A stretch of DNA of 64,000 bases from an uncultured Lachnospiraceae bacterium (lineage in GTDB: Bacteria; Bacillota; Clostridia; Lachnospirales; Lachnospiraceae), in the NCBI GenBank assembly GCA_910588535.1, contig CAJUOO010000002.1, positions 47,176 to 111,175 of the forward strand. The letters are read 5' to 3'. The notes below the pieces were generated by a model. The model was not told where the DNA came from. It saw only the letters and a list, made by a program, of their open reading frames with translations, and searched no databases. Of the stretch, positions 1 to 15,287 are shown piece after piece. Position 1 is the stretch's first letter. Each line of letters opens with the position of its first letter. The translations under genes and the position numbers were made by a program.

Positions 1-190
1 TCAGCCAGCCCCATTCCCCTGCGGATAAACTGCTGCAATTATGGTTCGCAAAAACGCAATATAATCCCTGCTTCACCACAAGCTGGCAGGCTTCCCCCAC
101 AATCTGCGCTGCTGCCAGTTCCCCCGATACCAGATATTGCCGATAATTCTTTACTTCCTGTTCCATCCGTCTTAAAACATTTTCTCTCAT
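1..190 (-). CDS. hypothetical protein, N-terminal 63 codons only (gene runs off the window start); probably mobile-element associated
   Basis: ATG at 190-188 with SD GGAAGGAG 6 nt upstream. The frame stays open to position 1. It directly follows the Cys-rich gene in the same orientation. Confidence 0.5.
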   Translation of the reverse strand, partial: MRENVLRRMEQEVKNYRQYLVSGELAAAQIVGEACQLVVKQGLYCVFANHNCSSLSAGEWGWL

Positions 191-203
191 AAAGTTCTCC
201 TTC

Positions 204-392
204 CTATGCCCCGCATTCTTCATAAAGAGGGCAGTCACAACAATAGTCATAGTCACATTCCGCACCTGTCAGAAAACCATACTGCACAATCGGCATACAG
301 GTGTTCAGATACAGGCTGCACCTTCCGCAAGCCCCAGGCATTTCAGGCGTTACGGGCTTCCCCTGTAATAAGCAGTTCTCCATCCCATTCAT
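204..392 (-). CDS. small cysteine-rich protein of the kind carried by Firmicutes conjugative elements
   Basis: 62-aa ORF with 9 Cys, including GACGRC and CCDC clusters. The internal ATG at 383 (M4) has better SD spacing. The family call is from memory. Confidence 0.55.
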   Translation of the reverse strand: MNGMENCLLQGKPVTPEMPGACGRCSLYLNTCMPIVQYGFLTGAECDYDYCCDCPLYEECGA

Positions 393-435
393 CTCCTTTC
401 CTTAAAAAATGGCAAAAAAATAAGACCTATGGGGG

Positions 436-1440
436 TTACACTATTTCCACACGGTCATATGCCCTGCTGTAAAAATACACATTGTCGGATAAGACTTCTT
501 CCTCCGCAACCTCGGAACCGTTGATTCCCTGAACCATCATTTTCATGTATTCAACATCCATGTCCTCCGTGTCAGGGAGAAAGATAAGCTCATGTATAGA
601 GGACGGGAGAATGTAAAAATCAGAACCGATACACTCCGCAAAATCCCTTAACAGGTTCGGGTACAGAAGGACGGATGCGCCGTTAAGCCTGTCATGATTG
701 GAAGCCACATACATAGGAAACACATCTTCCGTTACCGCTGGCATATCATAAAATTCTCCTGAATCACCAGCATCCAGCATATCCTCCATCATTTCCACCA
801 TCACGCTTTCCATGGACTGCACCCTGCCCCTGAAAATACGCTGCGTGTTCTCCATGGCGATAGGATAGATTGTCTGCGTATCGGTTCCCCATGCATCCAT
901 AAAACTATTTCTTACAAGGATTGTGCCTGCATCTTTATGCCCCCTTGACACCAGAATGTAAAAGACAACGGCAAGGTCATGGTACGGGATATAAGGGATG
1001 CCTGAAAGCAATTCCCTGTTCCGCTCCGCATTTACCAGCTTGAAGCATATCCTTTCTTTCGCACGGTTGAAGTCTGTTACCATCCTGCTGTCAAATCCCC
1101 GTACCGCCTTGCCCTGCTCATATAAGCGCATAATTTCCTTACATACCGCTTCCATTGTCATGCCGTCCTGATATTCTTCAAACAGGCTTTCAAGGTAGAT
1201 GGTCGGGGCTATGTTGATAACCTTCTCACGGATGGCAAGCCCTGTTAAATGTGTGCCGTTGTTCTTCGTCACTGGCTGGATGCTGATGCTATACCCGCTG
1301 CCATAGACCGCCTCCATTGCGCTCTTTACTGTCCCTGCAAATGCCTCCATAGTCCTGATTGTACCGTCTGCCATGATTATGCGTCCTCCTTCGTTGTTCG
1401 AATTGCTGTTAGCTGCTCCGTTATTCTTTGCGTTGTTCAT
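436..1440 (-). CDS. DUF5688-like protein (ICE accessory/leading-region protein)
   Basis: 334 aa with SD AAAGGAG 9 nt upstream of the ATG. It has an Asn/Gly-rich N-terminus followed by a globular domain. The resemblance to DUF5688 is recalled, not searched. Confidence 0.6.
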   Translation of the reverse strand: MNNAKNNGAANSNSNNEGGRIIMADGTIRTMEAFAGTVKSAMEAVYGSGYSISIQPVTKNNGTHLTGLAIREKVINIAPTIYLESLFEEYQDGMTMEAVCKEIMRLYEQGKAVRGFDSRMVTDFNRAKERICFKLVNAERNRELLSGIPYIPYHDLAVVFYILVSRGHKDAGTILVRNSFMDAWGTDTQTIYPIAMENTQRIFRGRVQSMESVMVEMMEDMLDAGDSGEFYDMPAVTEDVFPMYVASNHDRLNGASVLLYPNLLRDFAECIGSDFYILPSSIHELIFLPDTEDMDVEYMKMMVQGINGSEVAEEEVLSDNVYFYSRAYDRVEIV

Positions 1441-1731
1441 AGTGATAATCTCCTTTTCTTTGATAAAATGTGTTGTCGTGTTCCATATTCAGTTGTAAGC
1501 TGCTGTTTCAGGCACAGCTACCATGGATTCTGCAAGGGAACCACCGCCTTTCCTTTGGATTGTGTACAAAAATAGAACAGTTTTATGACTTGTTCAGGTC
1601 AAATAAAAAAGACACCAAGATTTCTCCTGATGCCTTAAATACTCTGATATATAGACCCGTGGGGTTCCGAACGAAAAACTTCTGTAAAAGTTAAAAGCGG
1701 GAACCGAACGGAAAATATATCTGAAAATTTC

Positions 1732-2475
1732 CTATATAACGGGCGTTGCCACACCCATGTTTACATATGTATAATCCACAATAATAATCAAATGGTCATA
1801 CACTACTATCGTGAAAGTCGCTGCCTTATTCCCATCCTCTTTTATTATTATGAATTGCATGGGCGTACAAACCATAGTACCCAGATTATAATATGACTTT
1901 TGCAGACAATCCGCTGCTTCATCAAAAAATGGCATACTTAATTCCCTGCTTGGAATACCATTACCATGCTGCCCTGCATACTTGCAAAAAGCATTATAAG
2001 TATTCAGGATATAATAATCCGTACCAGAATAAAGCCTGTAAAAATCTTCTTTATCAGGTATGTACTCCCACCTGTGATAATCAACCCAATTGCAGAAATC
2101 CTTACCGTCTGGCTCACAGTTTATAAGGATTTTATATTCATTGCATACCAGAAAAAGATACTTATATCCTCTGTAGCTTAGTATTTTTAAGCCGTTATCC
2201 TTACTATTGCTGTTGGCAACATGGTAGCTGCCACTTTCCATAAGGGTGACATATTCCGTATCAGATTCAGGAGCACTCTGCGCCACATAATCAATGCTTT
2301 TCCTGATTCGCTCATTTAACGCTCTGGCATCCATATTATCTTGATAAAGTTCCCAATCTATAAACTCTAAAGGAATCTTTTGTCTTTTTATTTTCTCAAA
2401 AACAATATATAAATTTGTACAAACCATAGTTTTTACTTTTCCTACTTTCCATGTACCACTTCCATAAAACATCAC
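1732..2475 (-). CDS. hypothetical protein (AT-rich cargo gene)
   Basis: 247-aa ORF. The start is uncertain; the ATG at 2427 (M17) has a better AGGAAAAG SD. No motif recognised. Confidence 0.55.
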   Translation of the reverse strand: MMFYGSGTWKVGKVKTMVCTNLYIVFEKIKRQKIPLEFIDWELYQDNMDARALNERIRKSIDYVAQSAPESDTEYVTLMESGSYHVANSNSKDNGLKILSYRGYKYLFLVCNEYKILINCEPDGKDFCNWVDYHRWEYIPDKEDFYRLYSGTDYYILNTYNAFCKYAGQHGNGIPSRELSMPFFDEAADCLQKSYYNLGTMVCTPMQFIIIKEDGNKAATFTIVVYDHLIIIVDYTYVNMGVATPVI

Positions 2476-2524
2476 TCAATTTTTTTAGTATTCGTTTTTA
2501 CTAATAATATATGTATACTTCCTT

Positions 2525-3013
2525 TCAAACCTCTCCCCGCAGCATTTTCGATACAAGATATTCTTTTCCAAAAAACTTTTCATAATCTTTCAAGGTATGG
2601 TTACAGTATAATATAGTTTCGGTGATTTGTTTTTCTAGCGCGATAGTATTATTATTCCTAACTCCTGTTTCATTTAAAATTCTTTTTGCGTTTTCGCAAT
2701 GTACTAGTGCATCCTTATGTAACATCTTATATTTCTCAAAAATCATATCATATTTTTCACCATTGCTTTCCTCCCATTTATCAATCAACTCTTTTATATT
2801 ACTGACTCTTCTAGTGGCAGTAGTACCCCAAATAATGCCAAGGCCATATAATTCGTTTCGCATTTCACATAAGTCTGTAAAGAAACGACCAGCTAGACCC
2901 GTTGCTTCTTTTGCTTTATCGTAATGTTCTAAAACTACATTCAACACACTTGGGTCATCTACTTTTTCAATAGTTACATTTATTTTTCCCCACTGTATAT
3001 CTCCCATTGACAT
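2525..3013 (-). CDS. hypothetical helical protein
   Basis: 162-aa ORF with AGGAGGT immediately upstream. The likely start is the third codon, ATG at 3007. It lies 5 nt downstream of the preceding gene. Confidence 0.6.
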   Translation of the reverse strand: MSMGDIQWGKINVTIEKVDDPSVLNVVLEHYDKAKEATGLAGRFFTDLCEMRNELYGLGIIWGTTATRRVSNIKELIDKWEESNGEKYDMIFEKYKMLHKDALVHCENAKRILNETGVRNNNTIALEKQITETILYCNHTLKDYEKFFGKEYLVSKMLRGEV

Positions 3014-3018
3014 ACCTC

Positions 3019-3378
3019 CTAATAATACTGGAACTCATTAACAAGTTCCCCTTTTTTGTCTATTTCATTCAGGATATCTTCATCCACCTGATATGCAGGG
3101 GCTTCTGTTTCATATGTAGCTTTAATAAAATACCTATCCATTGGATTTTTCTTTGTATAAATTACACCGTGGTTGCGAAGCCTATCTCTTATCCTGCTTA
3201 CTGTCACAACCGCCCTCTGCATATTTTTCCTTGCATTAACTCCCAGCATTCTTCCAACCACATCAGCCGCTGTGTTATTCAGCCAATTTGCAATGCTATC
3301 CCAAAATTTGTCTAAAATAACCGCCAATGCAATCCCCACTACAGCTCCAAGTGCTATTCCTGCTACTACATGCCACAT
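3019..3378 (-). CDS. small membrane-anchored protein (one N-terminal TM helix)
   Basis: 119 aa with SD GGGAGG 10 nt upstream. The N-terminus WHVVAGIALGAVVGIALAVIL is hydrophobic and the rest is soluble. Confidence 0.65.
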   Translation of the reverse strand: MWHVVAGIALGAVVGIALAVILDKFWDSIANWLNNTAADVVGRMLGVNARKNMQRAVVTVSRIRDRLRNHGVIYTKKNPMDRYFIKATYETEAPAYQVDEDILNEIDKKGELVNEFQYY

Positions 3379-3486
3379 AATGTATCTACCTCCCTATCTT
3401 ATATATTTTCTTAATTCCGAGTCATTTATTATAAATCTGGCAAATATGGATTATCTTTTTGCACTCCATATTTTAAACTTATGTCT

Positions 3487-4344
3487 TTATTCAGAACAAC
3501 GAGCTATTGTCGCATATATTTCCTTTTCAGTTTCTTTATCACCACCCGCATATTCTAACGCATAATTTGCTACTTCTATTGCTTTATCTTTTTCTCCGCA
3601 TTCTTCATATATTATAGACATCCATCGATAACAAAAACATGCCATTGTCCGCCAATATGGAATGCCCCTCGATAGATTATCTCCTTGATTATTAGAGAGA
3701 ATCCTCTCTACAGATTCCAGACAAAGATTTGAATATCTTATTACCTCTCGACCATGACCTTCTAAATCAGATTCAGACAATTCAAATTCTGAATTTGACA
3801 TTAGACTAAAGCATTCTGCAATCTCACCATCAGATTCAGCATAATCCAAAGCAGATTGCACCATTTTTAATTCATTATGAAAATCCTTATAATTACCATA
3901 CAGTCTCCCCATATTTATATAATAAGTCCAATGGTCTCTACTCGTCTCTGCGAACCTAAATCCCGCTTTCCATACTTTCATAGCATTTTCAGGCATATTC
4001 ATTCCCATATAACACACGCCCAAATCGTTATGACATAAGAACCTCTGTGTATGAGCACCATAATAATTAGTGCAATATTCTATCGCTTTCGAAAATTCTA
4101 TAACAACTTTCGCATCATTCATCTCCGATAAACTTCGCGCCATCAAATAGTGTCCCCAAAATTTATCAGCATCCGTTTTTGCAAACCACAAAACTTTCTT
4201 TGCCGCATTTAATGCCCCCTTATAATCTGCGCTATTATAAAGAGTCATCGCTTTATCTACTGCGTTTAACAGTGCCTTTCCAGGTGTTCCTTCATATTTG
4301 GTTTCTATGCTTTTTATGGTAACATTCGACCATTCCATTTCCAT
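3487..4344 (-). CDS. tetratricopeptide-repeat protein (operon gene E)
   Basis: 285 aa with repeated ~34-aa A/Y/G-patterned helical pairs (e.g. GHYLMARSLSEMNDAKVVIEFSKAIEY). It starts 6 nt after the stop of gene D. Confidence 0.75.
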   Translation of the reverse strand: MEMEWSNVTIKSIETKYEGTPGKALLNAVDKAMTLYNSADYKGALNAAKKVLWFAKTDADKFWGHYLMARSLSEMNDAKVVIEFSKAIEYCTNYYGAHTQRFLCHNDLGVCYMGMNMPENAMKVWKAGFRFAETSRDHWTYYINMGRLYGNYKDFHNELKMVQSALDYAESDGEIAECFSLMSNSEFELSESDLEGHGREVIRYSNLCLESVERILSNNQGDNLSRGIPYWRTMACFCYRWMSIIYEECGEKDKAIEVANYALEYAGGDKETEKEIYATIARCSE

Positions 4345-4350
4345 AATTTA

Positions 4351-5115
4351 TCATTTCCTCTCTTTCATCCCTCGTTCCGATACTGCATAACCTAATAAAT
4401 TCTGTATTCTATGGGGTGCATACGGTACAATTTCATCTGCCTTAGTATAATTGAGTACCATATCATCCAGCCTGTTTATCTCGGATGCCTGACTGATAAA
4501 CTCCTTCACGTCCACCTGTTCTGCCAACATTATGCTGTTCAGTACCATTTTCAGGATTGCATCAACAGAGCTTTTCACGCTCCCACACATCAGATATGCA
4601 AAATTATCAGCGGAATAATTCGCAAGCCTGTACCAGTGGTAGAATGACAGTTTTGACGATTTTTCAAACTGGTCTGGTGCCATCTGGTGAATAACTTTAA
4701 ATCGTTCCTCCATCATAGTACGCTGCTTTGTCACGCCATCCGCAATCTTATATATCTCCCTTGCCAATACAAATTGCAGCTCCCTATCCGTAAAATCCTG
4801 TATGGTCTTTGCGGAAAGCTCTATCCAGAAATTGCTGATTCCATAGCTCTCTGCGCCGTAATAATAATCCTCATAGACATACACGGTCGGGCTGCTTATC
4901 CCTGCTGCCCCTGCCATATCTCTAACCATCTGGAACACTCTGGGAAACTGTTTTTCCGATACCCTTACTGTCTTCCCAAGGAAATCAGGCAGCTTTATCT
5001 TATAGTCGATTTCGTCATAAACCTTCTCGAAATCCTCCTGAAACATCACACCGCCCTCATACTGGCTGTATGCTTTATCCTGCCCTGCATGGATAAACGC
5101 CGAACGTTCCATCAT
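4351..5115 (-). CDS. M48 (HtpX/Ste24)-fold protein lacking the HExxH zinc site (operon gene D, pseudo-peptidase)
   Basis: 254 aa. The region PTVYVYED...NFWIELSAKTIQDFTDRELQFVLAREIYKIADG follows the M48 pattern, but HExxH reads AREIYK. There is an ATGA overlap with gene C. Confidence 0.6.
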   Translation of the reverse strand: MMERSAFIHAGQDKAYSQYEGGVMFQEDFEKVYDEIDYKIKLPDFLGKTVRVSEKQFPRVFQMVRDMAGAAGISSPTVYVYEDYYYGAESYGISNFWIELSAKTIQDFTDRELQFVLAREIYKIADGVTKQRTMMEERFKVIHQMAPDQFEKSSKLSFYHWYRLANYSADNFAYLMCGSVKSSVDAILKMVLNSIMLAEQVDVKEFISQASEINRLDDMVLNYTKADEIVPYAPHRIQNLLGYAVSERGMKERK

Positions 5116-5777
5116 ATATACACATACACCTCCGTATCTCCCAGAACTGCAAGCACTTCCCCCACAACCTCACGGCATCTTGTTTCTCCCGTTTCCCTGT
5201 AGCATGACTGCAACGCTTCCAATGCCTCCATATCATCAGGGATGAATTGCAGCGCATAGGTTAGGAACGGAACCGCTTTCTTGTACAGCCCTTTCCCTGA
5301 CAGCAGCATTCCGAACACTTTATTTGCAAGGAAATGTCCCTCCACGCTCCCATGCTCCCGAAAATACGCCTCCATCAGCTCAAATGCCTTGTCCTTATGC
5401 CCTGCATGGTATTCCTGCAATCCCTGAATACACTCCATGAACACAAAATTATGACCATCTGCCATCTTCACACAGTCACCCAGATTTTTGAAACTGTTGG
5501 ATGCAAGGAACACCATGCGGTACAATAGCTGCTCCCTCTGCGCCATCAGTTCTGACCTGTGCTTTTTCCCATAGTCCGAATTGTCCTGTATCTCAATGCT
5601 GGTCTTTACTTCGCCCTCAATCCGCTTTAGCTCCTTCTGGATGCGGCTTATCTGTGTCTGCATATAGCCTGTGTCATAAAAATGTGTTTCTTCTATGACT
5701 TTTTCCGTTGCCCCTGATAATGCATTGACAAATCCCATCTCTGCCTTGCGGTACATTGTCACGGTTTTTTCAATCAT
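5112..5777 (-). CDS. coiled-coil / TPR-like helical protein (operon gene C)
   Basis: 221 aa with SD AGGAGGG inside the end of gene B. The N-terminal part is a charged helical segment and the C-terminal part has TPR-like repeats. Confidence 0.65.
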   Translation of the reverse strand: MIEKTVTMYRKAEMGFVNALSGATEKVIEETHFYDTGYMQTQISRIQKELKRIEGEVKTSIEIQDNSDYGKKHRSELMAQREQLLYRMVFLASNSFKNLGDCVKMADGHNFVFMECIQGLQEYHAGHKDKAFELMEAYFREHGSVEGHFLANKVFGMLLSGKGLYKKAVPFLTYALQFIPDDMEALEALQSCYRETGETRCREVVGEVLAVLGDTEVYVYI

Positions 5778-5780
5778 CCC

Positions 5781-6953
5781 TTATCCCTCCTGACCGCTTA
5801 TCTCTTTCTGGTACTGTTCCTCGGTAATGGTTTCCGTGGATACTACCTGAAACCCTCCCGTCCCGCTTTTATCCTCATAACGTTCTCGGATAACATGGTA
5901 GGCATAATCAAACACAGAAAAATCCAGCATTTCCTTTTCCTGCTCCAATGCATACAGGGCAGCATAAAATACCATATCCTTGATATCTGCCCCTGAAATG
6001 CCCCCATAACGCCCTGCAAGGCTGTCTGCTGTGACTTCCCCCTGCAATGGCATTCTCGCCCCTAAATGCAGCTTCCAGATAGCTTCCCGCGCCTCCCTGT
6101 CTGGCATATCGAAATAAACGCTCAACAGGATTCTCCGCTTGAACGCCTCGTCATAATTGCTGATAAGGTTTGTTGTAAAGACCACGACACCCACAAACTT
6201 TTCCAGTTCCATCAAAAGTACGCTTCTGGTGATGTTCACCCCATAATCCGCTGACTGCGTGACGGATGTAAGCCGTTTCCCCAGAAAGGAATCCGCTTCA
6301 TCAAATACCAGCACCGCATCATCCCTTGTGGCGCACTCAAAAGCCTTTCGGATGTTCTTGGGCGTTTCCCCAACATACTTTGATTCCAGCTCCGAATAAT
6401 TGATGTGGTACACTTTCTTGCCTAGAGCCTGTGCGACCGCCTCCGCTGTCATGCTCTTGCCTGTCCCAGCTTTACCATAAAAATTGAGGATGATAGCCCT
6501 GCTGCCATTAAAATATTCTGACATCCCCCATTCCTCGGACATCTTCTTCCTGTGCCTGACCGCTGATATGGCTGTCCTGACCTTCTCCCTGACTTCCTCA
6601 TTCAATGCGACCTGTCCCAGCGAAAACCTCGGTTCGTAGCTCTCTATGATTTCCTGTGCTGGCTCCTGCTGCCCCTGCTTATCATTATCAGATATAGCCC
6701 TGCTGCCCGACTTTCGGATGATGATTTCATCTGGTACGGGGTTGTATCTGGAACAGTTGCCCTTGACCGCCTTTGCCATCTGTTCCAGCATATTGTCAAT
6801 CAGTATCTCGTCCAGCAGTTCCTCTTTCCCGTTTACCTCCCCCGTAAAGACATCCTGCAAATGGAAGCTCACTGTCCTGCCCCCTATGGAACAGTATTTT
6901 GTAATCCCTGCTGCCTTTATGTTCTGTACATCTGGTTCTCTTTTCTGTTTCAT
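5781..6953 (-). CDS. classical-clade AAA+ ATPase with ~150-aa N-terminal non-ATPase domain (operon gene B)
   Basis: Walker A is GKAGTGKS and Walker B is LVFDEAD. It also has the ESKYVGETPKNIRKAF and FKRR motifs. There is an ATGA overlap with gene A. Confidence 0.9.
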   Translation of the reverse strand: MKQKREPDVQNIKAAGITKYCSIGGRTVSFHLQDVFTGEVNGKEELLDEILIDNMLEQMAKAVKGNCSRYNPVPDEIIIRKSGSRAISDNDKQGQQEPAQEIIESYEPRFSLGQVALNEEVREKVRTAISAVRHRKKMSEEWGMSEYFNGSRAIILNFYGKAGTGKSMTAEAVAQALGKKVYHINYSELESKYVGETPKNIRKAFECATRDDAVLVFDEADSFLGKRLTSVTQSADYGVNITRSVLLMELEKFVGVVVFTTNLISNYDEAFKRRILLSVYFDMPDREAREAIWKLHLGARMPLQGEVTADSLAGRYGGISGADIKDMVFYAALYALEQEKEMLDFSVFDYAYHVIRERYEDKSGTGGFQVVSTETITEEQYQKEISGQEG

Positions 6954-7204
6954 TTCTTCCCGCCTTTCCCGAATATCAAAGGTACGGCATTGGGGTTTCT
7001 GGCAAAATAGCCTGTTGCCCTGTTGATGGCTGTATTACCGTCACCATCACGCCAATATCCCGCTACGGATGTACCGTCTTTCCGCATATATGCGCTTACA
7101 TTGTGTGGATGGACATAATGCGCTGGCGTGAGTGTGGTAAACTGCCTCCCCCTGCCACTGAATGTATTGATTGCATAAGGCTGGAATGTCGTTTCCCCTA
7201 ACAT
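6950..7204 (-). CDS. small soluble protein, Gly/Arg/aromatic rich (operon gene A)
   Basis: The track ORF starts at a GTG (7213). The ATG at 7204 has SD GGAAAGG about 8 nt upstream. Motif: YMRKDGTSVAGYWRDGDG. No TM segment or signal peptide. Confidence 0.6.
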   Translation of the reverse strand: MLGETTFQPYAINTFSGRGRQFTTLTPAHYVHPHNVSAYMRKDGTSVAGYWRDGDGNTAINRATGYFARNPNAVPLIFGKGGKK

Positions 7205-7232
7205 ATCTTTCACCTTTCCTGTCCGCTACAGT

Positions 7233-7255
7233 CTGTATCTTATTTTTCGATACAG
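7233..7255. promoter_or_regulatory. inverted repeat CTGTATC-N9-GATACAG in the divergent promoter region (possible operator)
   Basis: A perfect 7-bp inverted repeat lies between the first gene of the minus-strand operon and the XRE gene. Confidence 0.3.
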
Positions 7256-7357
7256 CTACACATATATTAACATATTAATAACTAAAATGCTACATCATGT
7301 TACATTTTTCTATGTTATGCCAAATAAAATTTTTATAAATGGAAGGTGGATAAGGAT

Positions 7358-7786
7358 ATGAAGGAACGGCTGCTCCCTGAAAAACTGAAAGAACTGCGGA
7401 AAGCGCACAACTACACACAGGATTATGTGGCTGCTGCCCTCGGTGTTGTGAGGCAGACCTACAGCCATTATGAATCTGGCAGAAGGACACCAAGCCCCGA
7501 CATCCTCTATAAGCTGGCTGGGCTTTACAATATCACCGTGGATGATTTGATGCAGCTCACGATTGAATTAGACCGCAATGTCTACTATGATGCACCAGCA
7601 CCCACACAATCCAGTGAGGATTTAGCTGGGTTCCTCGAATACTTCAACAGCCCGAACAACAAAAAGAAATACCAGCTTTTCAACAATCTGGAAAAAGAGC
7701 TGCTGTATTATTTTGAGAAGATATCAGAGGATGATAAGAGGGAAATCATAGAGTTTACGAAAATCAAAGCACATAAGAACAGATAA
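7358..7786 (+). CDS. XRE-family helix-turn-helix transcriptional regulator
   Basis: The HTH signature is LKELRKAHNYTQDYVAAALGVVRQTYSHYESGRRTP. The ATG at 7358 is preferred over the GTG at 7346 (SD GGAAGGTGG). Confidence 0.85.
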   Translation: MKERLLPEKLKELRKAHNYTQDYVAAALGVVRQTYSHYESGRRTPSPDILYKLAGLYNITVDDLMQLTIELDRNVYYDAPAPTQSSEDLAGFLEYFNSPNNKKKYQLFNNLEKELLYYFEKISEDDKREIIEFTKIKAHKNR

Positions 7787-7829
7787 CAGCCAAAGTATAG
7801 CATGACCGTACTCTGGCTGTTCTTGTATT
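7785..7829 (+). terminator. possible intrinsic terminator of the XRE gene
   Basis: The stem AACAGCCAAAG / CTCTGGCTGTT has 1 mismatch and is followed by a weak T-rich tail, CTTGTATT. Confidence 0.35.
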
Positions 7830-8297
7830 AAAGCCATATATAGGAAGGGCTGGGTATATATCTTTTTGTTTCTTTAAAGGAAAAGGAGTCGGTTCTCCCA
7901 GAAATTTTCACTGGATTTTCCCCTATACTGCGATTCCAAAAATATATATGCAGATTTTTCTCCCTAAATTGGCAGTTTCTTTAACCTATAACAGCAAAAA
8001 AGATACCATTCATAGAAGTATATCCTATGAATATAGTATCCCTAAGTTAACAATATTGTGTCGTCATCAAGAGAGACAGACTGACATATTATTAAAGAAA
8101 ATATTGCTCTAATCTGCATCCGCTAATCTTCATTGACTTGGCTGCTGCCACGCTATGCTTTGCTACAATATTCTATATTATAATATAATTCGCTAAGATA
8201 TGCTCTGCTCTGCAATATCCACTTTCAAATATACACCAGCCGTCTCTTCTATTAAGATAACACACTCCGCATAAAAAGACAATCAACTAAACAATAT

Positions 8298-8870
8298 TCA
8301 ATTTTCACACTGTAGCCTCTTAGCCCGCAACAATGTACTTTTGCTGATGCCTGTCATTTCTGAAACCTCTTTGTAAGAATGATTCTCCAATAGCTCCATA
8401 GCATGATTCAGTTGTGCCCTGCCATACTTCGGTGGTCTTCCCTCCTTAAAGTCAGGGTTCTGCCTTGCTATGGCTTTCCCTTCCCCTGTGCGCTCCACAA
8501 TCATATCACGCTCAAATTCCGCAAATGCAAGCATGACGTTCCGCACCAGCTTCCCCGTAGGGGTATTGTCCATCATGCCCATATTCAGCACATGGACGGT
8601 GATACCCTTATCAAGCAATGACTGTATCAGTTCAATGCCCTGTGTGGCACTTCTGGCTATCCTGTCCAGCTTCGTGACCTTCAATGTATCGCCTGGCTGC
8701 ATGACTGTCAGCAGCTTATCCAGTTCTGGGCGGCGTGATTTCGTTCCCGTAAAAGCATCTGCATAAACCTCCTCTGCCCCTGCTGCCCTTAGTGCGTTCT
8801 CCTGTGCTTCCAGACTGTTCCCGTCCTTTGCCTGTGTCTTTGTTGATACCCTTGCATAACCGTAAATCAT
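8298..8870 (-). CDS. small serine recombinase (resolvase/invertase family)
   Basis: [13 protein letters not shown] carries the catalytic Ser, and there is a C-terminal HTH ([16 protein letters not shown]). The ATG at 8870 has SD AAAGGAGAA. The upstream 44 codons of the track ORF are discarded. Confidence 0.9.
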
Positions 8871-9027
8871 AATGTGTTTCTCCTTTCGTAATTTGATTTC
8901 AGGAATCAAAAAAAGAAGGTCATTACAACCTTCTCCTAATGATACCCATGATTCTATTTTGTTACTTATGAATATAAGAAATGACACCACTGGAAGCCCC
9001 ATAAAACCGTAGGTCAGCAGTTGGTGT

Positions 9028-9045
9028 CATAACTTAAAAGTTATG
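9028..9045. other. perfect palindrome CATAACTT-AA-AAGTTATG (hix/res-like candidate recombinase site)
   Basis: Two 8-bp half sites surround a central AA, about 160 bp upstream of the recombinase start. The loop is too short, and there is no T-run, for a good terminator. Confidence 0.3.
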
Positions 9046-9059
9046 GTACTACACAATAC

Positions 9060-9848
9060 TTACCAAGATAATTTACCATTCTCTATTTGTATCGGTTTAC
9101 CTTGAACGTTTGATAAAACTTGCATGATTCCAGCAAACTGCAATTGCACCCCATTTGACTTAATTGTCACTCTCATTGCATTATTAGGTGTTAATGGTCT
9201 AAACAGTCGTATCGTTTTCATTTTCAATCTAACAGGAGTTCCGTTAATACTTCCATCTACCTCACCTGTACTATCATAATGAGTTGAATCCTCTGGTTGC
9301 ACATCAAATTCTTCATATTTGTTATTAAAAATAAAAGCAAAATTTGCATCATTTTCGCTAAACATCATTGCCCTGATTTCTATTTTAATCAATTTATCTG
9401 ACACAATATCTACTACAGCCTTTACGTTCTCTATATCCGCCAAAGCTTTATATGTACTATTTCCTTTTGCTACGCACTTCATTTGTGCAACTGCATCATC
9501 TAAACCAACTCCATACAAATCTATATATAATGAATCGGTTAATATAGCAGGAGGTTTACAATCCGCAATTCTTACAGGTACAAATTTCAAGTTCTCGTTT
9601 ATGGACTTAGTTAATCCACTTTGCCATTCCTTTGTTACCATCTTACTGTTTAAACTATTTGGAGATAAAAAATAGAAGAATGTAGTAAACTTTTCTATCC
9701 CTTCATTCATTTTTCCAATTATGCTATCTCCTGGCTGTATAGACCATTTATCATAAAAAATATTATTTCTTCCAAATTCCAATTCCAACCTTCTTGCAAC
9801 CATATCTACTATTTGTTCATCATTATGGTTATAACTAATAAAAATCAT
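9060..9848 (-). CDS. TIR-domain protein with ~130-aa beta-rich C-terminal domain
   Basis: MIFISYNHND ... NNIFYDKWSIQPGDSI ... FLSPNSLNSKMVTKEWQSGL matches the bacterial TIR pattern, including the Glu before Trp. The ATG at 9848 has SD AAGGAGG. Confidence 0.85.
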   Translation of the reverse strand: MIFISYNHNDEQIVDMVARRLELEFGRNNIFYDKWSIQPGDSIIGKMNEGIEKFTTFFYFLSPNSLNSKMVTKEWQSGLTKSINENLKFVPVRIADCKPPAILTDSLYIDLYGVGLDDAVAQMKCVAKGNSTYKALADIENVKAVVDIVSDKLIKIEIRAMMFSENDANFAFIFNNKYEEFDVQPEDSTHYDSTGEVDGSINGTPVRLKMKTIRLFRPLTPNNAMRVTIKSNGVQLQFAGIMQVLSNVQGKPIQIENGKLSW

Positions 9849-9934
9849 TTTACATGACCTCCTTCTCAAATGTTATTGTTAATCTATTCTCAGCATATCT
9901 ACGCCATTTAAAATCCTATCCTAAAATTTTTCAA

Positions 9935-11593
9935 TTAGCAAATCACATTAAAATATTTTAAGGCATCCTTAATGTACTCCACCTTCTCCTGCGGACAGTG
10001 CTTGACTTCTGGATTATCTTTCTTGGATTTATTATAGTTCTCTCCCATATCCAATCCACACATCCGCTTTACTTCTGCAATATACCTCGTATGCACATTC
10101 ACACCATACTTTTCCTTCACATACTCCTTAATCTTCCCATAGGTAGCCTTTTCTGTTGGCGTGTAATTGCTTTCTGCACTAGGCTCCATTGTTACCTCAA
10201 TTTTAGGTGTATCTTTTTTGAGGGATAATTTGACAACCGTCTCCACATGCCTCGTCTGCGGAAACATATCCACCATCTGCACCTTCTCCGCCCGATATCC
10301 CATCTCCTCCAGCTTTTTCAAATCTCTCGCCAATGTAGCCGAGTCACATGATACATACACTATTCGTTCTGGTTGCATCTCAACCATAGTTTGTAACAGT
10401 CCTTCTTCACACCCCTTTCTTGGCGGATCTACTACAATTACATCCACCTGCGCCGCAACCTCATCTCCACTATGCGTTTTATTCTTCTTACACCATTCAG
10501 GAAACACTTCCTCTGCTTTTCCAACAAAAAATTCTGCATTATCCACTCCATTTTTTAATGCATTTTGCCGTGCATTATCAATAGCAGCTGGTACAATCTC
10601 AACCCCATACACTTTACCAGCCTTTTTTGCAAGAAAAAGTGAAATAGTACCAATTCCACAATACAGATCCCACACCACCTCACGTCCAGTAAGCTCTGCA
10701 TATTCTAATACTTTCGCATATAGCTTTTCTGTCTGCACAGGATTTACTTGAAAAAATGACAACGGCGAGATCTCAAACCACACATCACCAATTCGATCCT
10801 CAATCGTTGTATCACCCCAAAGACTAATAATCTCTTTACCCAAAATTACATTTGTCCTCTCCTGATTTGGGCTTATTGTAATACTCTTCATCCCATTTAC
10901 CACCGCCAAACGCTCTGCCAAAATCTGCCCATGCGGAAGCTGTCTACCATTTATCACAATACAAACCATCAGATGTCCCGTGTGATATCCTTTTCGGATC
11001 AACACATGCCGAACCAGACCTGAATGGCTCTCCTCACAATATGGCTCCACATAATACTCACGCATATAATCCATGACAATAGACAAAATCTCTTTATTCT
11101 CCTCCACTCCCAACACACAATCATCACAAGAAATAACCGAATGAGTCCTGCCCGCATAAAACCCAGCAATCAGATTGCCGGACTTATCCCGCCCTATTGG
11201 AAACTGTGCCTTATTGCGGTAGCGCCACGGATTGTCCATACCAATAATCGGCTCACAACTATACTCAGATAACTTGCCGATACGATCCAGATTATTTCTC
11301 ACCATAGCTTCCTTAAGTCTAAGCTGCTCTTGATACTCATACGCCTGAAGCTGACATCCCCCACACTGCCTCGCCACTGGGCATCGTGGAGCAACACGCT
11401 TCTCTGAAGGCTTTATTAATTTAACAAGCCTGCCATACCCATAACTTTTTTTTGCCTTAATCACTTTAATCTCCGCCACATCTCCGACAACTGTATCCTT
11501 GATAAAAAGGGTATAGCCATCAACCTTGCCTATACCCTCTCCATCCTGATTGATATCTATAATTTCTACAACCGAATAATCATTTTTTTTCAT
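9935..11593 (-). CDS. rlmD: 23S rRNA (uracil-5-)-methyltransferase RlmD/RumA family with ~95-aa C-terminal extension
   Basis: It has a TRAM-like N-terminus, the Cys cluster CPVARQCGGCQ, the SAM motif DLYCGIGT and the PPRKG motif. The ATG at 11593 has SD GAGGTGG. Confidence 0.85.
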   Translation of the reverse strand: MKKNDYSVVEIIDINQDGEGIGKVDGYTLFIKDTVVGDVAEIKVIKAKKSYGYGRLVKLIKPSEKRVAPRCPVARQCGGCQLQAYEYQEQLRLKEAMVRNNLDRIGKLSEYSCEPIIGMDNPWRYRNKAQFPIGRDKSGNLIAGFYAGRTHSVISCDDCVLGVEENKEILSIVMDYMREYYVEPYCEESHSGLVRHVLIRKGYHTGHLMVCIVINGRQLPHGQILAERLAVVNGMKSITISPNQERTNVILGKEIISLWGDTTIEDRIGDVWFEISPLSFFQVNPVQTEKLYAKVLEYAELTGREVVWDLYCGIGTISLFLAKKAGKVYGVEIVPAAIDNARQNALKNGVDNAEFFVGKAEEVFPEWCKKNKTHSGDEVAAQVDVIVVDPPRKGCEEGLLQTMVEMQPERIVYVSCDSATLARDLKKLEEMGYRAEKVQMVDMFPQTRHVETVVKLSLKKDTPKIEVTMEPSAESNYTPTEKATYGKIKEYVKEKYGVNVHTRYIAEVKRMCGLDMGENYNKSKKDNPEVKHCPQEKVEYIKDALKYFNVIC

Positions 11594-11968
11594 ATATAAA
11601 CCACCTCTCTGCCCCAAACACCAATATATCATAAAATATATTAACTAACTCTTGCTTATCCACTCTAGCCTTCTTCTGTTTTTATCTTCTACTTAGTTAT
11701 AAAACTGACACACTATAAAAACACGCGGAAATAAAGCCACAATCACAACTGCCAATGATCCGTTTGTTTCGTATTTCTGCGGCATTACAGACAGCAGATA
11801 GAAAAAATTGAAAAATCAAACTAATCCAAGCAGGAAAAATAATACTATTTCCAACAAATTCCACATCTCCCTAATATACCTAAGTATAATAACTATCCAA
11901 ATGTAATTTTGACAAGTAAGACAGAATATTTATATTTCTTATTTTGTCACTCTTACTCTGAAAAAAAT

Positions 11969-12619
11969 TTACCTCTTTTCTCTCAAAATATGCCACACAT
12001 CATTACCAATGAAACCACATTTACGATATAGTTCTTCTGGTTTATCAGGGCTGCAACATTGTCCCGATACAGTAACAAATCGTGCTGTGTTTTTCATTCT
12101 CCGTAACAGATCCAATACCATATAACGCCCTAACCCACATCTACGATAATTCTTTGATACCTGAATCCATTCTAGTACACCTTCACCGATCTCCTCATCC
12201 AGTTCAGCAATACCAGTTGCCACAATTTCTCCTGTATTAATGTCCTTGACAGCCAACCACAATTCTGGGCAATATACTCTTCTGGCTATATAGCTCTGTA
12301 ACTCAGACACAGAAAGACAGACGTCTTTATAACATTTATTAATATGTTCAGCAAACTCTGGAATAGTGGCTTTATAAAGCGAATATCCATCTGGCATTGA
12401 TACAGAATCAACTTCCTGCAAATGATGCTGCAGACGAAAATATGGTTCATCAAAATATTTATCCAACAACTCTGGATAAAACTCCCTATGATGTAAGATT
12501 TTCATATGATCTGGCACAGTAGTACAATTTGCTTTCCAATAAGGAACAGATAATGTACCACATGGATTTTCAAGATATTGCTTTTTTGATACGATATTCA
12601 TAAACCAATTTTTCTCCAT
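11969..12619 (-). CDS. GNAT family N-acetyltransferase
   Basis: The acetyl-CoA motif is RRCGLGRYMVLDLLRR. 216 aa; start uncertain. Confidence 0.7.
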   Translation of the reverse strand: MEKNWFMNIVSKKQYLENPCGTLSVPYWKANCTTVPDHMKILHHREFYPELLDKYFDEPYFRLQHHLQEVDSVSMPDGYSLYKATIPEFAEHINKCYKDVCLSVSELQSYIARRVYCPELWLAVKDINTGEIVATGIAELDEEIGEGVLEWIQVSKNYRRCGLGRYMVLDLLRRMKNTARFVTVSGQCCSPDKPEELYRKCGFIGNDVWHILREKR

Positions 12620-12721
12620 ATTTTCAAGAATTTTTTATCACCCAGATAAATTCTATTAAAATACATAATATATATTAAGAAAATTCCTATTAACTATAAC
12701 CATAACAAATCATACAAAAAC

Positions 12722-13339
12722 CTAATTTAAAACCTCCATAACTTTATCAAACTTTATCTTATAATACTTTGCACTGCATTCCGACAATTTCTGAAAGCTT
12801 CTCATCCATTTATTTCTTACAAACTCTCTGCCTTCTTCTATACCCATTCCATTCTCTACATACGCTAAATACAGTAAACTGGGCACATTATCAAAATGTG
12901 AAATTGCATCTGCATCCGCCACACACAATTCTTCCAAACTGTCTCTTTCGCTCCACACACTTCCTCTATGTTTTTTTATGCAATCCTGTACCAAAGCAAT
13001 TTTCTCATCATCATAATTATATTCTTTCAAAATTCCATAAGCCATTTCTGCCCCATAAATATGGTGTTGTTTATATAAACTATAATCTGTAACAGAGGCA
13101 ATATCATGTAGCCATGCTGCAATCATTACTATTTCCTTATCTGCTCCAAATCTCTCCGCAAGAATTTCTGCATTTTTCACCACAGCCGCAATATGATAAT
13201 AACATCCCATTCCAAATTTATTTGTTTCTTTTAAACACCTGCTATATACTTCTTTTTGCAACCCTTCTAAAATATCTTTCCGCATAGCTTTCTTTATCCC
13301 ACACCCAAACATAACAACCGCCATCACATCATACTCCAC
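12722..13339 (-). CDS. HD-domain phosphohydrolase
   Basis: Contains the H...HD motif (AAWLHDIASV). The track start is a GTG and the true start may be an internal ATG. Confidence 0.7.
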   Translation of the reverse strand: MEYDVMAVVMFGCGIKKAMRKDILEGLQKEVYSRCLKETNKFGMGCYYHIAAVVKNAEILAERFGADKEIVMIAAWLHDIASVTDYSLYKQHHIYGAEMAYGILKEYNYDDEKIALVQDCIKKHRGSVWSERDSLEELCVADADAISHFDNVPSLLYLAYVENGMGIEEGREFVRNKWMRSFQKLSECSAKYYKIKFDKVMEVLN

Positions 13340-13393
13340 TTTTTATTCCCTTACATTGCACATGAGTAGACTGGGCGGTCATACAATAAGCAT

Positions 13394-14194
13394 CTATATA
13401 ATCTCTCCGCGAATTAAATTATAATCTGCTGCACATTTCCTTAATCCATCTATAACAGTGCTAAACCTTACACCATATTTTTTTGCCTTATCACAATTCA
13501 TCCATAAATTATGTCTCGCAGGACTATCTTCTAACTTAACTGTTCTCCCCAATAAATCAATGAATTCTTGAGTAATATCATACATTGATTTTGTTGTTTC
13601 ACTACCAAAATTATATACGCCTCCCGGTAAAGCAATGGCTTTTTCTATGTTTTTTCCTACTTCTTTCAAATATGTAATCCCTCGAAACTGTCTGGAACTA
13701 AACGAGACACTTTCTTTTGCATGAATAATATTCATAAAATAATTTGTTTTGTTCAAATAATAATCATACATCCATTCAGCACGCAATATCACTACATTAG
13801 GATTCATTTCTAATACCCTCTGTTCCATCTCTAACTTATGTTTTGCATATATATTTTTCGGGTTTACTATATCCTCCTGATATGGTCCTTCTTCGTTACA
13901 TCCATTATAAACCTGATCCGAACTAAAACAGACTAATTTCCTGTCTTTTGATGCTTGTGCAATAAAAAGTGGAATTTGCACATTTGCATAATAAGAAGCA
14001 TCTGGGTCAGCTTGACACACTCCCATATCAGAAATAACAGCAGTATGAATAATGACATCTGCGTCACTTTCCGCGATTATGCGATTTATTTCTTCTTGCG
14101 TGACATTACGAAGCGATGGAGCAGCAATTGTATTCTTATATATCTCCATTATTTTATGACCTACAAATCCATTCGCCCCTGTTACCAAAATCAT
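13394..14194 (-). CDS. NAD-dependent epimerase/dehydratase (RmlD-like sugar-nucleotide reductase)
   Basis: Contains the Rossmann motif VTGANGFVG and the YxxxK motif (YAKHK). The ATG at 14194 has SD GGGAGGA 5 nt upstream. Confidence 0.8.
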   Translation of the reverse strand: MILVTGANGFVGHKIMEIYKNTIAAPSLRNVTQEEINRIIAESDADVIIHTAVISDMGVCQADPDASYYANVQIPLFIAQASKDRKLVCFSSDQVYNGCNEEGPYQEDIVNPKNIYAKHKLEMEQRVLEMNPNVVILRAEWMYDYYLNKTNYFMNIIHAKESVSFSSRQFRGITYLKEVGKNIEKAIALPGGVYNFGSETTKSMYDITQEFIDLLGRTVKLEDSPARHNLWMNCDKAKKYGVRFSTVIDGLRKCAADYNLIRGEII

Positions 14195-14348
14195 ACTATC
14201 CTCCCAAATTGTCACTATCTAAATTCACTCAAATCCTACAAATTTCTGCTCTCTTATACTCTCACACAACAAGATTTTTATATGATAGTACAGTTATCCA
14301 TAACTTCTTGTAGGATAAATGTTCGTTCATCATTTTCGAAGAAGGTCC

Positions 14349-14489
14349 GTATAGCCAATCCGCTGTTTTCCTCCGTCACCCCGCTCCCGCTTAGTGAAAA
14401 ACGTAATGGATACTAAGCTCGTAAAATACCTCGCTAAGTACCAACGTTTTTCAATAGGTTCCTTGAGGAAAACAGCGGATTGGCTATAC
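14349..14489 (+). repeat. structured palindromic repeat module 1A (candidate ncRNA / hairpin element)
   Basis: A 23-bp perfect outer stem (GTATAGCCAATCCGCTGTTTTCC / complement) encloses the conserved core TCCGTCACCCCGCTCCCGCTTAGTGAAAAACG ... CGTTTTTCAATAGGTTCCTTGAG. Confidence 0.7.
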
Positions 14490-14839
14490 TACTTTACTAG
14501 ATGTTTCAGACACGCTGTACATCTGCATATACTTACAGCTCCATATCTATTCTTATTCCCTCGAATAACTAGACAAGTGACTGCTTACAGTTATATGATA
14601 ACTGCCATGAAAATCAAAAATTCCACTGCAAATACTCAATTTGACCCACATTTGTAAATTTACACAACTATAGTTATCAAAAGATACTTTGCTGATTTTA
14701 TTTTTTCTATAATCAATACACGTAGAATTGTAAGCAGGAAGTTAGTTTTATGTTGTACAAAATTACCTGTTTTTTGACTTGTGGGTTAAGTTAAATGCAA
14801 GCAGAATTACAATTTGTTTCGCCTAACTGATAAAACAGT

Positions 14840-14975
14840 CTGGTGAATTGTCTGTGGTTCTCAAGGAACCTATTGAAAAACGCCGGCGGTTAGCGAGGTA
14901 GTTTCGAGCTTACCGTCCGTTGCGTTTTTCACTAAGCGGGAGCGGGGTGACGGAGAACCACAGACAATTCACCGG
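14840..14975 (-). repeat. structured palindromic repeat module 1B (inverted relative to 1A)
   Basis: It has the same core in reverse complement. The outer stem differs (CTGGTGAATTGTCTGTGGTTC / GAACCACAGACAATTCACCGG) but is still self-complementary. Confidence 0.7.
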
Positions 14976-15128
14976 ACGGAACTTCCCCAAAATGATACAG
15001 CAAATTTTAAACAACAGAAAAAATATAAAACTCACAAAAAACTATAATAAATTGCTATATTTATCTATCCCAGAAATAAGTAAATTCAGCTAAGAAGATT
15101 ATATACAAAAACTCTCATTCTATTATTT

Positions 15129-15162
15129 AAAAAACAGGCAGAACAACAATATGTCCTGCCTT
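15129..15162 (-). terminator. intrinsic terminator downstream of yhaM
   Basis: On the minus strand: AGGCAGGACATATTGTTGTTCTGCCTGTTTTTT. Confidence 0.5.
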
Positions 15163-15287
15163 TAAATCACAAGTACAGTTTAGTATAGTTAAAAGTATCG
15201 CTGGTTTCGACACCCTGCGAAGCCAGCTTCACCTATAAAATCCACAGCAAACCCATATGGAAGCAATATCTGCTCAAAAATACAATA

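Follow-up and report, generated by a model that had tools for sequence, protein, structure and literature searches.

The window analyzed here is a stretch of 64,000 nucleotides (positions 47176-111175 of contig CAJUOO010000002.1) from the draft genome of an uncultured Lachnospiraceae bacterium (3.27 Mb, 42% GC, 92% complete). Near its start, a block of about 8 kb lies between a DUF5688 gene and rlmD (rumA); it forms the end, on the side of the attachment site, of an integrated element of a known kind, the rumA-targeting serine-recombinase elements. With a probability of roughly 0.7, we read it as the rlmD-proximal third of a 22,607-bp large serine recombinase (LSR) element, made up of a conserved backbone and two cargo slots, in which a TIR protein would act as an effector and an AAA+ operon would serve in protein remodeling. 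The initial annotation of this DNA had seen in the same genes a defense-island-like cargo mosaic at the end of an integrated element.

In this organization, an LSR inserted the element into rlmD/rumA at a conserved GAG codon that lies 11 codons from the end of the gene, and the resulting element end has three layers. The first is a backbone stretch (4354-9051) comprising a small first gene (s87), a Cdc48-like AAA+ unfoldase, a helical protein (u221), an M48-fold pseudo-peptidase (pM48), a divergent Xre-type regulator (HTH146), and a small resolvase. The second is an inner slot (1741-4353), in which a conserved membrane protein (TM119) stands among the replaceable AT-rich genes TPR285, o162 and o247, and the third an outer slot (about 9050-9950) beside the attachment site, occupied by a solitary TIR gene with its own terminator. 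From the DUF5688 gene (436-1440) to rlmD all genes are on the minus strand, except for HTH146 on the plus strand. Gene families were assigned with Pfam, PADLOC and NCBIfam, which agree with the gene content as first listed, and with PHROGs for some proteins.

Integration at the 3' end of rlmD

The ends of the element are fixed by a contig of another strain of the same species (L027), located via an identical MATE transporter, that has an empty site. Its gene order is HD, GNAT, rlmD (461 codons), two small open reading frames (ORFs), GmrSD and, farther on, DUF3788 and MATE, with no element. It aligns to positions 60639-57408 and 34800-28760 of our contig at 99.6-99.8% identity, and since the two alignments overlap by 15 bp, the element spans contig positions 34801-57407 (22,607 bp, 43.1% GC), the part within the window ending at 10232. 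An imperfect 15-bp repeat is found at both ends: the copy on the rlmD side (10233-10247, minus strand) has a 9-bp exact core, TGTGGAGAC, at 10239-10247, the second copy lies outside the window at contig positions 34786-34800, and the element is flanked by TGTGGAGAC(T/G)GT(G/T)GT. The block thus stands at the end of an integrated element, as the initial annotation had it, and the attachment repeats whose mapping it had recommended are in place. The chromosome boundary is not the rlmD stop (9935) but the recombination core at 10233-10247, and the last 98 codons of the rlmD ORF are element-derived. GmrSD was considered as a gene of the element and ruled out: the strain with the empty site also has it, and it belongs to the chromosome.

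As called here, rlmD (9935-11632, minus strand) includes the element-encoded tail and specifies 565 residues, whereas RlmD has 461 residues where the site is empty (L027) and 451-458 elsewhere in the genus; the identity of RlmD to that of the nearest species (87%) ends at residue 467, which is window position 10232/10233. The RlmD of the empty site terminates in ...HVETVVLIQRKDT, where Glu is the 11th residue from the end and its GAG lies inside the core TGTGGAGAC, and native RlmD and the integrated LSR share the C-terminus ...VETVVLIQRKDT. Both features by which rumA elements are recognized are present: the insertion is at the GA of a GAG codon 11 codons before the rumA 3' end, and the terminal LSR (Resolvase, Recombinase and Zn_ribbon_recom domains) is in frame with the last rumA codons, while RlmD has acquired a 98-residue tail. 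Insertion at the GA of GAG, 11 codons from the rumA end, is described for vanG elements and for the ICE-r (a group of integrative and conjugative elements, ICE) of streptococci, enterococci and Roseburia, and in-frame fusions on both sides of rumA insertions have also been published (Srinivasan et al. 2014, PMC4120198). With the insertion mechanism already published, the present case contributes a precisely delimited example of how a small integrative element of gut Firmicutes is organized.

The element-encoded tail (98 codons, 9935-10232, minus strand) is fused to rlmD when the element is integrated and to the recombinase when it is circular or in tandem, and its homologues, in more than 1000 protein clusters, are fused to RlmD-type methyltransferases or to LSRs. 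The attachment site falls within the recombinase gene, and integration exchanges the 98-residue tail of the recombinase for the last 11 codons of rlmD. Over the more than 1000 clusters the tail is 86-100% conserved despite greatly differing recombinases. At one locus (L016; G018:C12:1371-2599), a separate 104-residue ORF, 46% identical to the tail, comes after the gene of a TIR homologue with 70% identity, which suggests that the tail can be a stand-alone small protein travelling with this TIR family in another genus. On a contig of ENA ERZ17751861 (L058, aligned to window positions 5581-10249), a different LSR is fused to an identical tail, and after the tail come the same TIR, resolvase, helix-turn-helix (HTH) and AAA genes at 99.9% identity, a layout that shows that, in some samples, a second rumA-targeting element has accreted in tandem beside the present one. 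Across 11.4 kb, the element is 99.99% identical to its copies from other samples.

Upstream of the window, the element encodes the LSR, proteins of 500 and 459 residues, a DUF6076 protein, an HTH protein, a 299-residue protein (phrog_10048), a YqaJ exonuclease and an ArdC-like protein. A Pfam search of all ORFs of the 22.6 kb yielded no relaxase, coupling protein, VirB4-type ATPase or type IV secretion domain, so the element, initially taken to be of ICE type, is not a complete ICE and looks like a mobilizable or otherwise dependent integrative element. Neither the 500-residue nor the 459-residue backbone protein had a family match or a PDB sequence match, and one of them might yet be a novel relaxase. 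The 299-residue protein was the only element protein matched by PHROGs, and searches with pM48 through 50,697 phage records and 2.9 million IMG/VR contigs came back empty, with one distant match in a plasmid; on these grounds a phage nature of the element was rejected. An Rfam search of window positions 1-12000 (E <= 0.1) gave no RNA gene match, and the only tRNAs are far off, at about 31 kb.

The chromosome around the insertion is itself variable. Among same-species contigs (contig positions 28175-34785 here, and L023-L028), the interval from the rlmD 3' end to the MATE gene differs greatly in content, with GmrSD, Pkinase and a 1241-residue protein, RmuC, a 1588-residue DEAD/YjiV/MZB helicase with a Fic-like ATPase, R2K proteins, and a GH25 lysin; on its chromosomal side, the hotspot thus resembles a classical defense island more closely than the block of the element itself. 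Across rlmD from there, window positions 11633-15290 (a GNAT gene, a 205-residue HD gene and further sequence, AT-rich at 35-37% GC) are a second variable segment: in the nearest species (G003), rlmD comes directly after a yhaM-like HD gene, and the homologues of 11633-15290 are on other contigs in that genome and in G004. A BLAST of the rlmD 3' flank of G003 against the genome found nothing past the junction, and MATE synteny is not conserved with genome G002.

A conserved backbone with two cargo slots

Relatives of the block were compared by tblastn synteny at 23 genome loci and five metagenome loci; the searches use one genome per species, and absence there says little on strains. No other species of the genus yielded the block, and the AAA+ module has a patchy distribution (23 hits among 185,579 species genomes in a narrow pattern search). 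Homologues of pM48 fall into at least 185 clusters at about 60-91% identity. At the genome loci pM48 is preceded by the AAA gene in 22 of 23 cases and followed by a TM119 homologue in 21, with s87 usually first. At least 12 loci, from Lachnospiraceae, Oscillospiraceae, Acetobacterium and the Eubacterium plexicaudatum group, share one longer order: slot 1, resolvase, HTH146 (divergent), s87, AAA, u221, pM48, TM119, slot 2, DUF5688, ArdC, YqaJ and the 299-residue protein.

DNA alignments set the limits of the two slots. Against an element at rlmD in another species (L031), positions 4354-9051 align at 78.6% identity and 1-1740 at 75.6%, while 1741-4353 and 9052-10030 are without DNA alignment, and the same pattern is seen with L039 and L062. 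L062/L063, which is the closest relative and has a pM48 with 91% identity, carries the resolvase directly after the rlmD-tail fusion and the TM119-type membrane protein directly after pM48, followed by a Sel1-repeat protein. The stretch 4354-9051, which makes up 58% of the block, is conserved as well as the backbone genes DUF5688, ArdC and YqaJ, or better. The DUF5688 gene (PF18941, 6.1e-101; minus strand) is the first backbone gene past the block, and its homologues are 36-62% identical and collinear with the module in related elements.

Base composition follows the same division. The genome background is 42.0 +/- 4.5% GC (800-bp windows), and the genes for TIR, TPR285, o162 and o247 have 32-36% GC with a third-position GC content (GC3) of 0.25-0.35, at the 3rd to 11th percentile of genome windows. 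The genes for pM48, u221, AAA, s87 and the resolvase are richer in GC (43.8-49.2%, GC3 0.48-0.57, 61st to 98th percentile) and resemble the rest of the element in per-gene GC and GC3. The alternation that had been noted by eye between sub-blocks is therefore real in the per-gene values, and because the AT-rich stretches coincide with those that lack DNA homology in related elements, the mosaic is not a chance fluctuation.

These comparisons bear directly on the explanation first given, that the whole 8 kb is a defense-island-like mosaic of separately acquired cargo genes at the end of the element. In its favor, the block consists entirely of orphans, regulators, recombinases and conflict-type domains, the composition alternates, and the block is absent both from the genus's other species and from the same-species strain without the element, rather than being retained in strains that lack it. 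Nevertheless, 4354-9051 is one collinear stretch shared with another species' element at the identity given above, it keeps the same order with DUF5688, ArdC and YqaJ in at least 12 elements of other species, its composition equals that of the element backbone, and the orphans are operonic with the AAA+ genes. As an account of the whole block the mosaic is thus very unlikely, and for the middle part it is largely refuted. What stands of it is confined to the two AT-rich sub-blocks, 1741-4353 and about 9050-9950, which comparison with related genomes identifies as the variable ones and which show the mark of a hotspot, namely variable content at a fixed position; 4354-9051 lacks this mark.

The occupants of the outer slot differ among relatives. 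L062 has no gene in slot 1, L039 a pentapeptide-repeat protein and L031 a 204-residue protein with a small HTH protein (the TIR gene being absent from all three), and in L033 the slot carries a type IIG restriction-modification (R-M) enzyme with a methyltransferase. Across about ten loci, the TIR gene here and the R-M and methyltransferase genes of L033 are the defense-type genes of this slot, the other occupants having no PADLOC match. In this small sample of relatives, the outer slot fits a defense-type cargo site at the end of an element, as initially suggested.

The inner slot coincides with the 3' end of the AAA+ operon and in every case contains variable genes of TPR, Sel1, beta-helix or Hsp70/DnaJ/GrpE type. 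TPR285 (3487-4344, minus strand; weak TPR_2 and TPR_12 matches; 36.1% GC, GC3 0.28) is cargo placed between pM48 and TM119, where L062, the closest related element, has no such gene. The orphan o162 (2525-3013, minus strand; 33.5% GC, GC3 0.28, 5th percentile) starts 5 nt past the TM119 stop; its one family match, to Spatacsin_C, was below the Pfam threshold (E 0.0063; 16.1 bits, the cut-off being 25) and was taken as noise. The last gene of the slot, o247 (1732-2475, minus strand; 231-247 residues; 36.0% GC, GC3 0.35), has no Pfam, PADLOC, NCBIfam or PHROG match, and the only relative found is 30% identical and occupies the same position in L034. In related elements TM119 is followed by one or several variable, AT-rich genes, among them genes for proteins with an N-terminal GW..V.VE.V.D.NP.LY..R motif and TPR repeats, continued by beta-helix, Big_2, MORN/SH3 or membrane segments; Sel1 repeats and Ig-like ends also occur. 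The N-terminus of o162 has a degenerate form of this handle ('W..V.I..IE') that aligns weakly with the slot-2 proteins of relatives. In two lineages (L059-L061; L046:10973-14969), a set of GrpE, Hsp70 and DnaJ genes follows the TM119 homologue, the DnaJ protein of L059-L061 having additional TPR and PASTA domains; such a private chaperone set ties the AAA+/dead-M48 module to chaperone machinery.

Locus L032 (PGYR01000050.1), binned as an Ignavibacteriae metagenome-assembled genome, carries a module 70-74% identical to Lachnospiraceae copies in a layout almost identical to that of the Acetobacterium locus L033, and is probably a binning error or a recent transfer. Both cargo positions are exact and can be mined over thousands of rumA insertions for defense and counter-defense genes. 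As a defense-island call alone the finding would be fairly ordinary; the most exotic genes of the block are not its cargo but the conserved AAA+/pseudo-protease module with its hypervariable partners.

Possible roles of the AAA+ operon and the TIR gene

Eight minus-strand genes, from 7213 down to 1732, form the operon. Overlaps or gaps of at most 6 nt link s87, AAA, u221, pM48 and TPR285, and likewise TM119 and o162; the remaining gaps are 108 nt and 49 nt. The operon is closed by a terminator-like hairpin with a T run (1609-1636, minus strand; 12-pair stem), about 100 nt past the o247 stop and within DNA conserved with L031, the conservation there reaching window position 1740. The three orphans and the TPR gene, at first treated as independent genes, form instead the variable 3' part of one tightly packed operon, and the orphans are best read as the exchangeable end of one machine.

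The core of this machine is well conserved. The classic-clade AAA+ ATPase (5781-6953, minus strand; Pfam AAA 1.3e-22, with AAA_lid_3) has a Cdc48/VAT/FtsH-like cassette behind an N-terminal domain of its own of about 150 residues, its best PDB sequence matches are Cdc48, VAT and p97, and its motifs are intact (Walker A GKAGTGKS, Walker B VLVFDEAD, pore loop KYVGE, arginine motif FKRR). Upstream of it, s87 (6950-7213, minus strand; 87 residues, no family match) has a stop that overlaps the AAA start by 4 bp, and in related loci the AAA gene is immediately preceded by an s87 homologue (43-79% identical); no homology was detected between s87 and the 84-85-residue genes of distant modules. Downstream comes u221 (5112-5777, minus strand; 221 residues), helical and without a family match, whose stop overlaps the pM48 start by 4 bp and whose homologues (21-75% identical) are always found between the AAA gene and pM48. 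TM119 (3019-3378, minus strand; 40% GC, no family match) has a single N-terminal membrane helix, MWHVVAGIALGAVVGIALAVIL, and homologues at 34-67% identity that, besides the genome loci mentioned, are present in L018-L022 and G030.

The soluble protein pM48 (4351-5115, minus strand) gave weak Peptidase_M48/HtpX matches and was modeled with AlphaFold (pLDDT 85). In Foldseek the model matched Ste24p, ZMPSTE24, HtpX and BepA (best chains at probability 0.93-1.00) and then BlaR1 (0.82), with TM-scores up to 0.53, and viral M48 proteins were matched in a viral structure library. The fold is therefore that of an M48 zincin, but the zinc-binding and catalytic motif is not: HExxH reads AREIYK here, and both zinc histidines are missing in 17 of 17 aligned members, including a distant copy in G030 (AKEMCA), only the Glu being invariant.

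Taken together, we propose that the operon encodes an ATP-driven protein-remodeling (unfoldase) complex at the membrane, in which the dead peptidase pM48 would bind clients or adaptors, target choice would fall to the variable proteins of TPR, Sel1 or J-domain type, and the benefit to the element would lie in its conflicts with phages, with other elements or with the defenses of the host. The patchy distribution of the module, its linkage to elements and its hypervariable AT-rich partners argue for such a conflict role. As a more specific and tentative suggestion, the operon (1732-7213) could be a copy of an undescribed Firmicutes conflict system, immune or counter-immune, whose core would unfold or extract proteins of phages or rival elements by means of exchangeable specificity subunits of TPR/Sel1 or Hsp70/DnaJ/GrpE type. 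In the literature searched, DUF5688 is unmentioned and no link was found between M48 and AAA+ anti-phage systems or between Hsp70/J-domain proteins and anti-phage defense; the AAA+/pseudo-protease module is widespread, conserved and not described there.

The effector role is proposed for the TIR protein of the outer slot (9060-9848, minus strand; TIR_2 1.5e-22), which has a C-terminal beta-sandwich domain. Its gene (32.1% GC, GC3 0.25, 3rd percentile) has its own ribosome-binding site, is followed by a predicted terminator-like hairpin (8911-8937, minus strand), and is the sole TIR_2 gene of the genome. In a structure model (pLDDT 81), residues 1-128 adopt a TIR fold and residues 142-257 an all-beta domain; 24 homologues all retain Glu74 and Trp75, the C-terminal domain being variable. 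The family comprises 417 clusters and extends to streptococcal integrated elements, one of which, in Streptococcus suis, has the family member beside a Schlafen-like ATPase and a Fic/MazE pair. In PADLOC the protein had domain-level matches only (PDC-S66, bSEFIR, TIR-NLR), no ThsB-specific model being matched, and a canonical Thoeris system was ruled out, with no SIR2_2 match in the genome. A defense role is plausible, and the protein would then be a stand-alone, NAD-consuming effector activated via its own beta-sandwich domain.

An alternative is that the TIR protein is a host-interaction or signaling factor, or an inactive scaffold. Some bacterial TIR proteins of mobile elements act on animal hosts, and the present gene has no partner, no ThsA in its genome, and PADLOC matches that stop at the level of the TIR domain. 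On the other side are the lack of a signal peptide, the invariance of the Glu-Trp pair at the position of NADase catalysis, the R-M genes that a relative carries in the same slot, and the defense-type neighbors of the S. suis homologue; we regard this alternative as rather doubtful.

Several observations weigh against the roles we favor. For the TIR protein, no SIR2_2 (ThsA-type) gene is found beside it or anywhere in the 92%-complete genome, and the putative NADase activity is read from the conserved Glu only. For the operon, PADLOC had no model matching pM48, u221, s87, TM119, TPR285, o162 or o247, and the N-terminal handle shared by slot-2 proteins is weak or degenerate in TPR285 and o162. 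The module also stands beside ordinary chromosomal genes, off the backbone, in L041, L045 and L059, and is highly conserved (63-92% identity), unlike many fast-evolving defense genes. Its neighbors ArdC and YqaJ are of an establishment or anti-restriction type, with which a counter-defense or life-cycle role agrees equally well. With the ATPase as the only PADLOC match of the operon, a defense role of the operon remains presumptive, and the module may serve in defense, counter-defense, element derepression or envelope quality control.

A role in the element's own life cycle or in counter-defense is possible, if some way from established: the operon could neutralize host defense proteins after entry, together with ArdC and YqaJ, or unfold the HTH146 repressor upon a signal sensed via the TPR proteins. 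In at least 12 elements the module keeps a collinear arrangement with the genes for ArdC, YqaJ, a putative annealing protein and DUF5688, which nearly all point the same way; the operon is divergent from the highly conserved HTH146; and its own conservation is typical of core genes. ImmA removes ImmR in ICEBs1, and a zincin fold beside an Xre repressor near the attachment site recalls that pair. Conversely, the module stands alone, without HTH146 or the backbone, in L021, L041, L045, L048, L049 and G030 (no homology to HTH146 was detected in the upstream ORFs of stand-alone loci), and pM48, lacking both zinc histidines, cannot cleave a repressor.

Membrane or envelope protein quality control without any conflict role, in the manner of FtsH/HtpX or of endoplasmic-reticulum-associated degradation (ERAD), we consider unlikely. 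It would agree with the Cdc48/FtsH-type unfoldase, the HtpX/Ste24/BepA-type fold of pM48, the membrane anchor TM119, the copies among ordinary chromosomal genes, and the content of slot 2 in relatives (GrpE, Hsp70, DnaJ with TPR and PASTA, Sel1, or envelope-binding types of domain such as SH3, Big_2 and PASTA). It is opposed by the patchy distribution of the module among species genomes in the narrow pattern search noted above, and by features typical of conflict genes: the 3' genes are hypervariable, AT-rich and replaceable, and most copies are on integrated mobile elements. Should the remodeling complex that we favor prove to be a conflict system, it would add a protein-remodeling mechanism to bacterial immunity, beyond attack on nucleic acids or NAD; otherwise, the module would represent a new element-borne machine for proteostasis or regulation.

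The remaining backbone features lie between the operon and the outer slot. HTH146 (7346-7786, plus strand; HTH_3 1.3e-17) is an Xre-type regulator divergent from the operon, which it would repress; at 67-90% identity it is among the best conserved genes of related elements, with constant position and orientation. The 132-bp AT-rich region between the two (7214-7345) contains short palindromes, ACATCATGT among them, and at 7323-7294 a minus-strand match that resembles a promoter, a sequence pattern that suggests a divergent control region. The small serine recombinase of resolvase/invertase type (8298-8870, minus strand; 190 residues, frame open to 9002) has the domains expected of such an enzyme (Resolvase PF00239 1.5e-36, HTH_7 7.5e-6, HTH_49) and the catalytic-serine motif YARVST, and its homologues (51-90% identical) occupy the same position in related elements; it would resolve multimers of the circular form. 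An invertible segment for this recombinase was sought, and no convincing inverted repeats were found in 6900-10300, nor was a res or hix substrate site recognized. Between the convergent HTH146 and resolvase genes is an AT-rich non-coding gap of 511 bp (7787-8297; 34.8% GC, no Rfam match), partly non-homologous to L062 and L039, which may be a decayed gene or a resolvase site. In ASF492-type relatives, a 196-residue gene related to the element's own u208 protein lies in this gap.

Relation to known systems

Cargo hotspots are known in P2/P4 prophages and in hotspot 5 of the SXT ICE. The two slots are like such hotspots in that fixed backbone positions hold differing, compositionally atypical genes, some of them known defense genes. 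They depart from the classical form in that only two short slots are present (2.6 kb and about 0.9 kb), one of which is the 3' end of an operon, and in that the variable slot-2 genes resemble exchangeable subunits of one machine rather than independent systems. The TIR protein has some features of Thoeris ThsB and bacterial TIR NADase effectors (a TIR_2 domain in which a Glu is conserved, a further domain that is possibly a sensor, and carriage on a mobile element), and differs from Thoeris as a single gene without ThsA whose product has a beta-sandwich C-terminal domain.

For the AAA+ operon, one comparison is with IetAS, reportedly an anti-phage system presented by Gao and colleagues in 2020. 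In both, a classic-clade AAA+ ATPase is encoded beside a protease-fold protein, and the present ATPase matches the IetA models of PADLOC (5e-28). That score is of the same order as its generic AAA matches, the protein matching PAN and Cdc48 equally well, and the partner here is a dead M48 zincin, not the subtilisin-like IetS, within a set of at least five conserved genes and further variable ones. With 87.2 bits against the NCBIfam IteA_antiphage cut-off of 510, and with no Peptidase_S8 or IetS match in the neighboring ORFs, membership in IetAS was ruled out.

Two other comparisons concern the zincin fold and the unfoldase. As in ICEBs1 with ImmR and ImmA, an Xre repressor-like gene and a zincin-fold protein are found near the attachment-site end; unlike ImmA, the zincin is M48-like and not of the ImmA/IrrE type, lacks the catalytic histidines, and is encoded within an ATPase operon. 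The combination of a classic-clade unfoldase, an M48-type fold, a membrane anchor, and TPR/Sel1 and Hsp70/J partners follows the logic of FtsH/HtpX and of the Cdc48/Sel1/Hsp70/pseudo-protease arrangement of ERAD, in the sense of working alike only. Unlike those systems, the ATPase and the inactive zincin are separate soluble proteins, the distribution is sporadic and mostly element-borne, and the homology found is at the level of domains.

The closest comparison for the element as a whole is with the vanG elements and ICE-r described by Srinivasan et al. (PMC4120198). The present element differs in being only 22.6 kb long, in having no recognizable conjugation or resistance genes, and in carrying a backbone (DUF5688, ArdC, YqaJ and the AAA+/dead-M48 operon) that falls outside that description. 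It shares with them the same GAG codon, a recombinase at the far end in frame with the last 11 rumA codons, an element ORF of about 100 codons fused to the 5' part of rumA, and tandem accretion (PMC4120198).

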